Source: a phage
Strand: one strand, 5' to 3'
DNA: 24,260 nucleotides
Assembly (NCBI GenBank): GCA_018175035.1
Contig: GCA_018175035.1_4099.4
The notes under the pieces are model-generated. The model was not told the DNA's origin. It did not search any database and was given only the letters and a program-made list of their open reading frames with translations. Positions 2,299 to 5,463 of the stretch are shown here, piece by piece. The position numbers and the translations under genes were made by a program. Position 1 is the stretch's first letter. Each line of letters opens with the position of its first letter.

Positions 2299-2322
2299 GT
2301 ATACCTCTCGTTGTTTTTTTTG

Positions 2323-2395
2323 CGACTCTGGAGGAACTCGAATCCCCAACCAATTAATTAACAGTTAATCGCACCACCTATTGTGCTACAGAGTC
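2323..2395 (-). tRNA. tRNA-Asn (anticodon GTT), CCA not encoded
   Basis: Hand fold: acceptor GACTCTG/CAGAGTC, D-arm GCAC-AATAGGTG-GTGC, anticodon stem ATTAA/TTAAT, loop CTGTTAA, T-arm GGGGA-TTCGAGT-TCCTC; 73 nt. Confidence 0.85.
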
Positions 2396-2403
2396 ATAAT
2401 TAT

Positions 2404-3108
2404 TTATAAGCCATGTCTTTTCAAAAATCTAGCAAACACATTTTTGGAAGCACCATAACTTTCATATATACTAACTTTTTTCTCACCATTATTCAAACGT
2501 TGTTTGATATCTTCTATGTTATCTTCTAAACGTTTTACGTTTGCAAATTTCTTAGATGGTATATTATTTTTGGTTCTATAATTCAGTACTGAACCTGAAC
2601 TAATATTCATTATTTTAGCAATTTCAGTATCTAATAAACCTTGGTTAATATATTCTTTTACCTTTTCATAATCAACAGATGTTTCACCACCCTTTGTATT
2701 AGAAGGAGGCTTGACCATTTTTTGTGAACACTCAACACTACAATATTTTGTATATGATTTCACTTTAGTATGCCTACGGGTAAATTCCATATTACAACAA
2801 GCACATACAAATGAATCATATCGTGCTTGCACACCATTCTTATGTGTTTTATAACGATGTTCATCAACATGAAGTATTTGCAAATTTGACAAATCATCAT
2901 TTGTGAAATCATTATCAATGTGGTCTGCTTCTTCAGACTCAGTTAAATATCTACCTTCTTGTACTGCTAATAGATATCTGGCATATTGAGTACTGCTTCT
3001 ATCAGTTGGAGAATTATAAAGTATTACAGTTCTTCTACCTTCAGGGTTTATCTGTATATACCCATTCTCCCAATCATTACTGTATGGATATTCTAATTTT
3101 ATTTTCAT
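2404..3108 (-). CDS. HNH endonuclease with C-terminal helix-turn-helix-like region, free-standing, directly downstream of the intron-containing tRNA
   Basis: Protein contains EADHIDNDFTNDDLSNLQILHVDEHRYKTH (HNH motif), CxxC pairs, and a C-terminal LLDTEIAKIMNISSGSVLNYR segment; ATG start; 234 aa. Confidence 0.8.
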   Translation of the reverse strand: MKIKLEYPYSNDWENGYIQINPEGRRTVILYNSPTDRSSTQYARYLLAVQEGRYLTESEEADHIDNDFTNDDLSNLQILHVDEHRYKTHKNGVQARYDSFVCACCNMEFTRRHTKVKSYTKYCSVECSQKMVKPPSNTKGGETSVDYEKVKEYINQGLLDTEIAKIMNISSGSVLNYRTKNNIPSKKFANVKRLEDNIEDIKQRLNNGEKKVSIYESYGASKNVFARFLKRHGL

Positions 3109-3127: not shown

Positions 3128-3432
3128 TGAGCCATCTGTGAGTCGAACACAGTACCTAACGATTCGTATAATCTATAGTTTTCACTATAGTACGGACTAT
3201 ATCATCATCCCATAGGGATGCCGGACGCTAATGATGTATTACACAGTAAGATCGTACTGTACCATCTAGTCTCTGCACCTTCCCAATACGCTTATTGGGC
3301 TTGGCTCAGGATTGTCATCACCATTACGTGTTAAGATTTCCCTGAATTCATCCAGTTTTTCAATCACCATTACTGATGAAAGTCACCATTGTCGATGAGT
3401 CGTTTGCTCTAACCACCGTGAGCTAATGGCCC
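3128..3432 (-). tRNA. Intron-containing tRNA, anticodon CAT (Ile2-like, or elongator Met); exons 3395..3432 and 3128..3164; CCA not encoded
   Basis: 5' exon GGGCCAT-TA-GCTC-ACGGTGGTTA-GAGC-A-AACGA-CTCAT; 3' exon AA-TCGTT-AGGTA-CTGTG-TTCGACT-CACAG-ATGGCTC-A. The exons fold into a canonical 75-nt cloverleaf only after removing 230 nt from the anticodon loop. C4-G69 and C5-G68 match what I recall of the E. coli tRNA-Ile2 acceptor stem. Confidence 0.8.
3165..3394 (-). ncRNA. Group I self-splicing intron (230 nt, no ORF) in the tRNA anticodon loop
   Basis: 5' exon ends in U; intron ends in G; GUG near the intron 5' end can pair with the exon CAU (P1); core elements P-like AATTCAGGGAAA, Q-like AATCCTGAGCC, R-like CAGAGACTAGA, S-like GATATAGTCCG, with P7 pairing GACUA/UAGUC. 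Confidence 0.8.
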
Positions 3433-3439
3433 GATTTAG

Positions 3440-3676
<237 letters not shown>

Positions 3677-3682
3677 AAATTA

Positions 3683-3701
3683 ATTATATCAGTACTGAAA
3701 A

Positions 3702-3711
<10 letters not shown>
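3683..3711 (-). promoter_or_regulatory. sigma70-like promoter TGGACA-N17-TATAAT with TTCAGTACTGA in the spacer
   Basis: Minus strand: TGGACA ATAGTTTTCAGTACTGA TATAAT; the predicted start site falls at about the tRNA-Ser(GCT) 5' end (3676). Confidence 0.55.
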
Positions 3712-4968: not shown

Positions 4969-5137
<169 letters not shown>

Positions 5138-5141
<4 letters not shown>

Positions 5142-5298
5142 ATTCGTACCAGTAGTTCAATTAAGTACATTTCATATGCTGGATCGTTGATAAGTTTATC
5201 ATACATATGTGGCTCTGAAATGAATTCCCAATGATACTTTAGCCATCTACCGATACCCGAATATCTAAAATTAATGTCATTCATCCATTCTTCATGTG

Positions 5299-5302
<4 letters not shown>
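5138..5302 (-). CDS. small protein, MTHEEW family (member B, 54 aa)
   Basis: Manual translation: MTHEEWMNDINFRYSGIGRWLKYHWEFISEPHMYDKLINDPAYEMYLIELLVRI; ATGA overlap with member A; about 80% identical to A. Confidence 0.65.

Positions 5303-5463
<161 letters not shown>

Follow-up and report, generated by a model that had tools for sequence, protein, structure and literature searches.

Interruption of the tRNA(CAU) anticodon loop by a group I intron in RaK2/121Q-like jumbo phages

Phage group I introns have been studied since the description of the T4 td intron, and the locus considered here raises the question of whether a phage tRNA gene can be interrupted by one. All of the phage group I introns known at the time of a 2014 review were in protein genes, despite the many tRNA genes that phages carry (PMC3984707). 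The locus lies in a 24,260-nucleotide stretch of phage DNA (GenBank assembly GCA_018175035.1, contig GCA_018175035.1_4099.4), referred to as the window in its full length, which belongs to the RaK2/121Q-like jumbo phages and has E. coli as host. On its minus strand, at positions 3128–3432 (read directly from the window, and unchanged from an earlier note on this stretch), is a tRNA gene with a CAU anticodon that is split in two. We propose, and regard as very probable, that the gene is interrupted between tRNA nucleotides 36 and 37 by a self-splicing, IA-like group I intron of 230 nt that contains no open reading frame (ORF).

The two halves of the gene account for a complete tRNA. The 5’ exon (3432..3395, minus strand; 38 nt, GGGCCATTAGCTCACGGTGGTTAGAGCAAACGACTCAT) provides tRNA positions 1–36, with the 5’ strand of the acceptor stem (GGGCCAU), the D arm, the 5’ strand of the anticodon stem (AACGA) and the loop nucleotides CUCAU, and it ends in U36. 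The 3’ exon (3164..3128, minus strand; 37 nt, running from AATCGTT to ATGGCTCA, in full AATCGTTAGGTACTGTGTTCGACTCACAGATGGCTCA) provides positions 37–73, with AA, the 3’ strand of the anticodon stem (UCGUU), the variable loop, the T arm CUGUG-UUCGACU-CACAG, the 3’ strand of the acceptor stem (AUGGCUC) and a discriminator A; the CCA is not encoded. The earlier note had suggested that these halves, 230 nt apart, fold into a cloverleaf once the intervening sequence is removed, and ARAGORN does recognize the spliced sequence as a canonical 75-nt cloverleaf with anticodon CAT. The interruption falls between anticodon-loop nucleotides 36 and 37, and the loop restored by joining the exons, CUCAUAA, is identical to the CTCATAA loop of the uninterrupted alleles of ELP-22 and RaK2. 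The 5’ exon aligns with both of these alleles and with E. coli tRNA-Ile(CAT), and the comparison with intronless homologues that the earlier note had called for gives an alignment of the ELP-22 and RaK2 alleles across the junction.

The gene is easily overlooked. ARAGORN in its default mode calls six tRNAs in the window and the split tRNA(CAU) is not among them. In intron mode the program detects the split tRNA but puts the intron between nucleotides 33 and 34, giving an ACG anticodon, and we rejected this placement because the intron would end in U, the rules of a U·G pair at the splice site and a terminal G would both be broken, and the uninterrupted homologues have CAT. An assembly artefact, or two independent half-elements, is ruled out by the presence of the same arrangement in seven independent genomes together with the intronless alleles that align across the junction.

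The intervening sequence (3394..3165, minus strand; 230 nt, starting CGACAATGGTGA (CGACAAUGGUGA) and ending TATACG (GATTATACG), its terminal G lying at 3165) is an authentic ribozyme of the group I class. The Rfam covariance model for group I introns (Intron_gpI, RF00028) matches it with 99.1 bits (E = 7e-25) and full model coverage (1–253), well above the gathering cut-off of 50 bits, and the Turkey5 copy scores 95.1 bits. The largest ORF within the intron is 34 aa and none is of meaningful size, in keeping with the small ORF-less group I intron proposed in the earlier note, which had also named the Rfam search as a check. One part of the Rfam alignment we regard as an artefact, namely its 5’ end, which places P1 and P2 on a hairpin upstream of the tRNA (3487..3433) by way of a 90-nt insertion; we prefer a P1 formed with the anticodon loop, which covaries.

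The P1–P9 model, drawn from the Rfam alignment and the sequence, begins with a guide sequence, G-GUGA (3383..3387, minus strand; intron nt 8–12, read directly), in which G9-U10-G11-A12 pairs with exon nucleotides U33-C34-A35-U36 as P1, with a U36·G9 wobble at the splice site. A pairing of GUG with CAU had been noticed previously, along with the U at the end of the exon and the G at the end of the intron. The P1 extension is an intron C1-G8 pair, which is C-G in the window, G-C in OU509535 and A-U in the bacterial relatives described below; neither the U·G wobble nor the terminal G has been lost in any of the three exon contexts in which the phage intron is found, and every copy has the terminal G. 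P2 (UCAUCA-GUAA-UGGUGA; 3364..3379, minus strand; intron nt 16–31) is capped by a GNRA tetraloop and is followed by the 5’ strand of P3, P4, P5 and P4’ (3306..3355, minus strand; intron nt 40–89, from the Rfam alignment and pair counts) and the P6/P6a hairpin (3277..3305, minus strand; intron nt 90–118). The 5’ strand of P7, GAGACUA (3267..3273, minus strand; intron nt 122–128), pairs with 3194–3199 in a pseudoknot with P3. An additional 34-nt P7.1-like hairpin with a conserved GUAAUAC internal loop (3233..3266, minus strand; intron nt 129–162) separates P7 from P3’, and the remainder of the core (within 3194..3227, minus strand; Rfam alignment and pair counts) consists of the 3’ strand of P3 (3221–3227), the P8 hairpin (3206–3220), J8/7 and the 3’ strand of P7, UAGUCC (3194–3199). 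P9 (CUAUAG-UGAAAA-CUAUAG; 3173..3190, minus strand; intron nt 205–222) is followed by AUUAUACG up to the terminal G (G230). The P/Q/R/S-like elements reported earlier are accommodated by this model, in which P and Q are the P4 strands AAUUCAGGGAAA and AAUCCUGAGCC, and R and S are the P7 strands CAGAGACUAGA and GAUAUAGUCCG, all four located from the Rfam alignment. We also note that the octamer AAUGGUGA occurs three times within the intron on the minus strand, at the guide (3383–3390), the 3’ strand of P2 (3364–3371) and L5/P5 (3318–3325), and that the 5’ strand of P2, UCAUCA, is similar to the exon-intron junction CUCAU/C (here and below the slash marks the junction); these could reflect alternative pairings or coincidence.

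The structure is under selection. Among the six phage copies compared, of which five are distinct, 98.2% of cells are paired and nine pairs show compensatory changes, compared with none or one in slid controls, and these pairs are spread over P1, P2, P5, the P7.1-type hairpin, P8 and P9 (with three in P9); the catalytic-core positions, including helices P3, P4 and P7, are invariant. With 11 family members aligned the paired fraction is 98.1%, and compensatory changes are found in 29 of 52 pairs, compared with 5–12 in the slid controls. In this larger set five of the six P2 pairs and six of the ten P6/P6a pairs (five of seven in P6a, one of three in P6) are compensatory, and five P7 pairs are invariant while the outer pair covaries as GC, AU or UA. 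All 11 members have the additional hairpin that separates P7 from P3’; compensatory changes are seen in nine of its ten pairs, and both of its halves covary. In the Michel-Westhof scheme an extra element at this location is characteristic of subgroup IA and is absent from IC3, and the ribozyme, judged from its sequence and predicted helices, is IA-like, not IC3. P7.1 and P7.2 are among the peripheral elements used for classification (PMC3984707).

The split gene is found in seven RaK2/121Q-like phage records of E. coli and Klebsiella, from various countries and hosts, and is annotated in none of them. Identity to the window is 100% for Escherichia virus TH47, 99.3% for Turkey5, about 89% for Klebsiella phages Muenster, KP13-7, RCIP0023 and phiKp_21, and 86% for OU509535. 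The same intron is present in three different tRNA(CAU) bodies with distinct acceptor stems (GGGCCAU, GGCCCCU and GGGACUG) and distinct T arms, and the junction flanks, CGACTCAT/AATCG, are constant in all of these contexts and are the only part that the three bodies have in common. Four arrangements of the locus are seen. The order is tRNA-Ser, uninterrupted tRNA(CAU) and tRNA-Asn in ELP-22; tRNA-Ser, split tRNA, an HNH ORF and tRNA-Asn in the window, TH47 and Turkey5; tRNA-Ser, split tRNA and tRNA-Asn in the Muenster group; and tRNA-Ser, uninterrupted tRNA(CAU), the HNH ORF and tRNA-Asn in RaK2. The flanking genes in the window, both called by ARAGORN, are tRNA-Ser(GCU) upstream (3587..3676, minus strand) and tRNA-Asn(GUU) downstream (2322..2395, minus strand), and in phages that have neither the HNH ORF nor the intron tRNA-Asn(GUU) begins 4 nt after tRNA(CAU). 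Other relatives also do not have the intron, and some seem not to have this tRNA. The uninterrupted RaK2 gene (JQ513383 / NC_019526; L005:2311-2388, minus strand) is unannotated in both GenBank and RefSeq.

The exons of the window allele are chimeric. The acceptor stem is of the ELP-22 type, with 16/17 and 7/8 positions matching, the anticodon arm is of the Muenster type (16/17 positions, compared with 10/17 for ELP-22), and the T arm is likewise Muenster-type (21/22). A mosaic of this kind would be expected if the flanks of a homing site had been co-converted. We rejected the idea that the phage took the intron directly from its E. coli host, as no copy of it is present in 5,426 complete E. 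coli genomes. In the IMG/VR viral collection an exact 42-mer of the core has zero matches and a 19-mer is found at 10 loci.

More distant relatives were sought with a three-block pattern of invariant core positions, which identified 19 loci in bacterial and archaeal assemblies sampled at one genome per species and more than 120 in IMG/VR, and tRNA halves around these loci were sought with the ARAGORN intron mode, by brute-force splicing and with a T-arm scan downstream of each ribozyme. The first two approaches missed the Muenster-type alleles and the long intron of locus L085, and the T-arm scan recovered both. Same-family introns are present in the chromosomal tRNA(CAU) genes of Vibrio sinaloensis, Vibrio sp. 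10N.286.49.B1, Alteromonas lipotrueiana, A. oceani, Rheinheimera lutimaris and Paraglaciecola arctica, and the six gammaproteobacterial genes (L022, L029, L030, L032, L036 and L037) have an identical insertion site, CGACTCAT/AATCG, a GUGA guide and introns of 239–243 nt, with ileX-like exons (GGCCCC...GGGGCCACCA). A proteobacterial metagenome-assembled genome has the same arrangement with the flanks GGACTCAT/AATCC. A 2026 survey of 333 bacterial tRNA introns places tRNA-Ile2 introns from Pseudomonadota in the IA clade (PMC13011429), and the six bacterial introns fit that group. Of the roughly 85 viral-contig family members that were screened only one lies in a tRNA gene, and this is L085 (IMGVR_UViG_3300033146_001150, 1285–2095), where a 724-nt group I intron from this family, with a 156-aa HNH ORF inside it (L085:1331-1801), divides a tRNA-Leu(UAA) at 34/35. 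The contig is viral and 68.6 kb long, with genes for a tail fibre protein and a dUTPase and a tRNA cluster of Met, His, split Leu and Met.

Outside of tRNA genes the nearest relatives by sequence are the Vibrio phage terminase introns, the cyanophage psbA intron and the introns of Staphylococcus Twort/K-like phages, and the closest of all (L060) interrupts a viral DNA polymerase gene (PHROG DNA polymerase I, 2e-35). In a bootstrapped neighbour-joining tree of a 154-column core, the introns from phage tRNA genes cluster together (95%) with this DNA polymerase intron as their sister (79%), and those from bacterial tRNA-Ile2 genes make up a clade of their own (77%); support for the deep nodes is 5%. 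We also observed that the terminase large-subunit gene of Vibrio phage vB_VpaM_R16F (L004:770-2798) is divided into at least five annotated pieces by four group I introns of this same family (72–94 bits each).

The ORF that separates the split gene from tRNA-Asn in the window (2404..3108, minus strand; 234 aa) starts 20 nt past the 3’ end of the tRNA and is similar to HNH homing endonucleases. It matches PHROG 14913, ‘HNH endonuclease’ (5e-56), and has a DHID...N...H motif, a Cys-rich segment and a C-terminal helix-turn-helix-like region; there was no Pfam match and a PDB sequence search returned nothing useful. The protein is 71% identical to RaK2 ORF219, and is related to the HNH protein encoded inside the L085 tRNA-Leu intron (36% over the catalytic domain, E = 3e-14; same PHROG). 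In ELP-22 the ORF is absent and tRNA(CAU) abuts tRNA-Asn. Homologues lie 20–26 nt downstream of tRNA(CAU) in four jumbo-phage genera, represented by the window group, RaK2/K64-1 (RaK2, L005:1584-2291), Pectobacterium phage CBB (L159:1201-1605) and Yersinia phage fHe-Yen9-04 (L158:1201-1602), and given this recurrent placement the most natural reading of the HNH protein is a free-standing homing endonuclease linked with tRNA(CAU) genes. In fHe-Yen9-04 the gene before the HNH ORF (L158, ~1106–1182) is an unannotated tRNA(CAT)-like gene whose D arm is unusual and which ARAGORN missed.

These features can be assembled into a most likely course of events. The tRNA cluster would be transcribed from the minus strand, and the best promoter-like site in the region (3711..3683, minus strand), upstream of tRNA-Ser(GCU), is a possible start for co-transcription, with promoter-like matches as a class not above chance. 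The intron would fold with GUGA pairing to U33–U36 as P1 and with the anticodon stem AACGA/UCGUU bridging the exons, exogenous guanosine would attack after U36, and the terminal G230 would then take the G site in P7, allowing the 3’-OH of U36 to attack after G230 and the exons to be joined with the loop CUCAUAA. Host enzymes would trim the ends and add the CCA that the window allele does not encode, and host TilS would turn C34 into lysidine for the reading of AUA, the tRNA being most likely of the Ile2 type. As for mobility, we infer that the intron moves among tRNA(CAU) genes with the site CGACUCAU/AAUCG, probably when phages co-infect a cell and their DNA recombines or double-strand breaks are repaired, perhaps with help from the neighbouring HNH endonuclease.

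Several observations weigh against one or another part of this proposal and there are alternatives to consider. The folding z-score of the intron is -2.2, which is modest alone, and our case for the ribozyme is built on covariation, not on folding energy. P10 is weak, with about two base pairs, the window allele with its G2·U71 wobble and no encoded CCA is slightly less canonical than its relatives, and no specific grouping of the ribozyme core with the introns of bacterial tRNA-Ile2 genes is seen in the tree, so that shared descent of the insertion site is no more than a possibility. Splicing itself we infer from the sequence, starting from what is directly observed, which is the anatomy, the homology, the selection on structure, the presence/absence polymorphism and the chimeric exons. 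In RaK2 the HNH ORF lies beside an unoccupied site with identical flanks, contrary to a simple model in which HNH cuts that site, and in tRNA identity there are the further points that the OU509535 exon has A4-U69 in place of C4-G69 and that sequence cannot decide between tRNA-Ile2 and elongator tRNA-Met. The lost CCA, the acceptor-stem G·U pair and the weak P10, together with the many relatives that do not have the intron and those apparently without the tRNA, could be accounted for if the intron were a decaying relic that no longer splices and the split tRNA a passively carried pseudogene. We think this very unlikely, since the catalytic core is invariant among the phage copies and the changes outside it are in the great majority compensatory, the U·G wobble and terminal G are kept in all three exon contexts in which the exons still form perfect cloverleaves, and the gene has been retained across E. 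coli and Klebsiella phage lineages at 86–89% identity. An intron that is actively spliced is thus our favored interpretation, and the split gene is real and probably functional. It could be argued that the interruption is adaptive, delaying or gating an AUA-decoding tRNA during infection, or shielding the gene or the pre-tRNA from anticodon-directed nucleases, and there is circumstantial encouragement for this in the position of the intron exactly within the anticodon loop and in the role of phage tRNA clusters as battlegrounds with host tRNA-cleaving defences (PMC13096335). However, close relatives thrive with uninterrupted alleles, there is no sign in the sequence of a ligand-sensing or regulated ribozyme, and selfish spread accounts for the patchy distribution, and a selective benefit of this sort appears improbable.

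The identity of the tRNA and the relationship of the intron to the HNH endonuclease are separate matters, on which different conclusions could be reached even if the intron splices as proposed. The tRNA is likely to be an Ile2-type decoder of AUA, a rare isoleucine codon. Among E. coli genes, the window tRNA after splicing and the tRNA of Muenster both match best a CAT-anticodon gene annotated as tRNA-Ile (GGCCCCTTAGCTCAGTGGTTAGAGCAGGCGACTCATAATCGCTTGG...) in 5,426 of 5,426 genomes, which bears out the resemblance to tRNA-Ile2 that had been pointed out in the earlier note, as do the C4-G69 and C5-G68 pairs. A 13-nt segment, CGACTCATAATCG, is identical to E. coli tRNA-Ile(CAT) and the two pairs are common to both; the anticodon arm, CGACUCAUAAUCG, matches the ileX arm exactly, and the pairs are present in both the window and Muenster alleles. 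C4-G69 and C5-G68 are the pairs by which E. coli TilS tells tRNA-Ile2 from tRNA-Met. AUA accounts for 25% of the Ile codons in window ORFs of 100 aa or longer and occurs there at 20.5 per 1000 codons, several-fold above its usage in E. coli. In the 49 kb surrounding the Turkey5 tRNA cluster no tRNA(CAU) other than the split gene is present, and the gene is not obviously redundant. An intron that splices to give an elongator tRNA-Met would fit the CAT anticodon, the tRNA-Met label given to the uninterrupted alleles by ARAGORN and the GenBank records, and the missing C4-G69 of OU509535; we consider this identity rather unlikely, as the best match in every E. coli genome is the CAT tRNA-Ile gene and not metT/U, the ileX anticodon arm, the two acceptor pairs and the high AUA use point to Ile2, and anticodon-based tools cannot separate Ile2 from Met. 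As for the HNH endonuclease, its link to the intron is suggested by position and homology, and collaborative homing is plausible: HNH would cut the intronless tRNA(CAU) genes of co-infecting phages, repair would copy both elements, and the intron would shield its own genome. Such a trans-homing pair, by a pathway that has been described (PMC3984707), finds support in the proximity of an ORF-less intron and a free-standing HNH ORF 20 nt away, in the HNH homologues directly 3’ of tRNA(CAU) in four jumbo-phage genera, in the same-PHROG HNH carried by the phage tRNA-Leu intron of L085, a member of this ribozyme family, and in the absence of both elements from ELP-22 and the chimerism of the exons. 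We advance it as a possibility that falls somewhat short of probable, as the Muenster-type phages have the intron without HNH and the RaK2 HNH is next to an empty site of identical sequence; the two elements occur separately and therefore assort independently.

The ribozyme family and its mechanism are already known, and it is the host context, a phage tRNA gene, that appears to be new. A full-text literature search, with most subscription-journal papers outside its scope, turned up no description of a phage tRNA gene interrupted by a group I intron, and the suspicion of novelty voiced in the earlier note holds within the literature searched. The finding is less isolated than it had seemed, however; the phage tRNA context stands apart, but same-family introns occupy the same site in gammaproteobacterial tRNA-Ile2 genes, and introns in Lak phage tRNA genes were reported in 2019. 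The significance is limited to this extent, in that the biochemistry is conventional and a same-family intron at the same site is already present in bacteria. It is nonetheless a clear counter-example to the generalization that phage group I introns are confined to protein genes, and the jumbo phages of E. coli and Klebsiella that carry it are in culture, so that standard tools can be used to test its splicing, the identity of the tRNA and homing directly. Because the gene is unannotated in all seven records, phage tRNA inventories under-count split tRNAs of this kind, and this affects inferences about codon usage and host range that are drawn from phage tRNA content.

The locus also joins three groups that have been treated apart, the phage protein-gene introns, the bacterial tRNA introns, and the free-standing or intron-encoded HNH endonucleases, and it suggests a vehicle for the lateral spread of tRNA introns. 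More speculatively, phage tRNA genes may act as shuttles, with a single promiscuous family of small IA-type ribozymes passing between the protein genes and tRNA genes of phages and the tRNA-Ile2 genes of bacterial chromosomes, the universally conserved anticodon stem-loop CGACUCAU/AAUCG serving as the landing site and one HNH family, intron-encoded or free-standing, as the motor. We offer this only tentatively and consider it doubtful as it stands. If true, it would explain the sporadic distribution by lateral transfer, noted long ago, of the tRNA introns of bacteria, most of which have no endonuclease genes, and it could be tested in cultured E. coli and Klebsiella phages.

Some additional features of these genomes are worth recording. 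The window contains three tandem, slightly overlapping, paralogous ORFs of 54 aa (4977–5463, minus strand), all starting MTHEEWM and with 32–34% identity to the first copy, and the same triplet is present in Turkey5. The CBB record includes a 110-nt ‘tRNA-Val(GAC)’ (L159:723-832) and the Turkey5 record a 119-nt ‘tRNA-Leu’ (L160:24029-24147); both exceed the length of any canonical tRNA and neither is reproduced by ARAGORN or Rfam, and they may be annotation artefacts or further interrupted tRNAs. A tRNA with a CTA anticodon, of the amber suppressor type and labelled Sup or Pyl, is present in the same tRNA cluster in fHe-Yen9-04 (L158:561-636) and CBB (L159:345-417).

Among known systems, the IA-type tRNA-Ile2 introns of Pseudomonadota are the most similar to the intron described here. 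They share the tRNA species, the 36/37 site, the flanks CGACUCAU/AAUCG, the GUGA guide, the helix set including the P7.1-type hairpin, the lack of an ORF, and a similar length (239–243 nt, compared with 230 nt here), but they reside in bacterial chromosomes and not in a phage genome, and the core identity is just 75–78%. The IC3 tRNA introns, which include those of Azoarcus tRNA-Ile, cyanobacterial tRNA-Leu and tRNA-fMet, are also small and ORF-less and are located in the tRNA anticodon loop, with that of Azoarcus in the same type of tRNA and having the same CAU/GUG pairing in P1. They differ in that the intron here has the covarying extra hairpin between P7 and P3’ and groups by sequence with phage protein-gene introns, although the two-step guanosine-initiated mechanism is presumably shared (PMC13168695).

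The phage protein-gene introns, including those on marine viral contigs, are homologous to it end to end, with core identities of 74–86%, a GUAA loop on P2 and a P7.1-type hairpin. Those introns are in mRNAs (terminase, DNA polymerase and psbA), whereas the flanks here are tRNA halves and not ORFs, and there is no reading frame to restore; P1 is built from the anticodon loop, unlike in the protein-gene introns. Collaborative homing pairs are represented by the cyanophage psbA intron with F-CphI and the Aeromonas phage Aeh1 nrdA intron with MobE (PMC3984707), and the arrangement here resembles them in having an ORF-less intron and a free-standing endonuclease gene adjacent to the interrupted gene. 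It departs from them in that the host gene is a tRNA, the intron and HNH also occur apart (in Muenster and RaK2), and the cleavage target is putative. Lastly, Devoto et al. (2019) described tRNA introns in the Lak megaphages as ‘enigmatic’, unclassified, and the first reported; according to the methods the intron sequences were tested against Rfam, and the text never mentions group I (PMC6784885). As in our phages, these are intervening sequences in phage tRNA genes with alleles present or absent among relatives, but one Lak intron may itself encode a tRNA (PMC6784885), and the intron described here is unambiguously a group I ribozyme.

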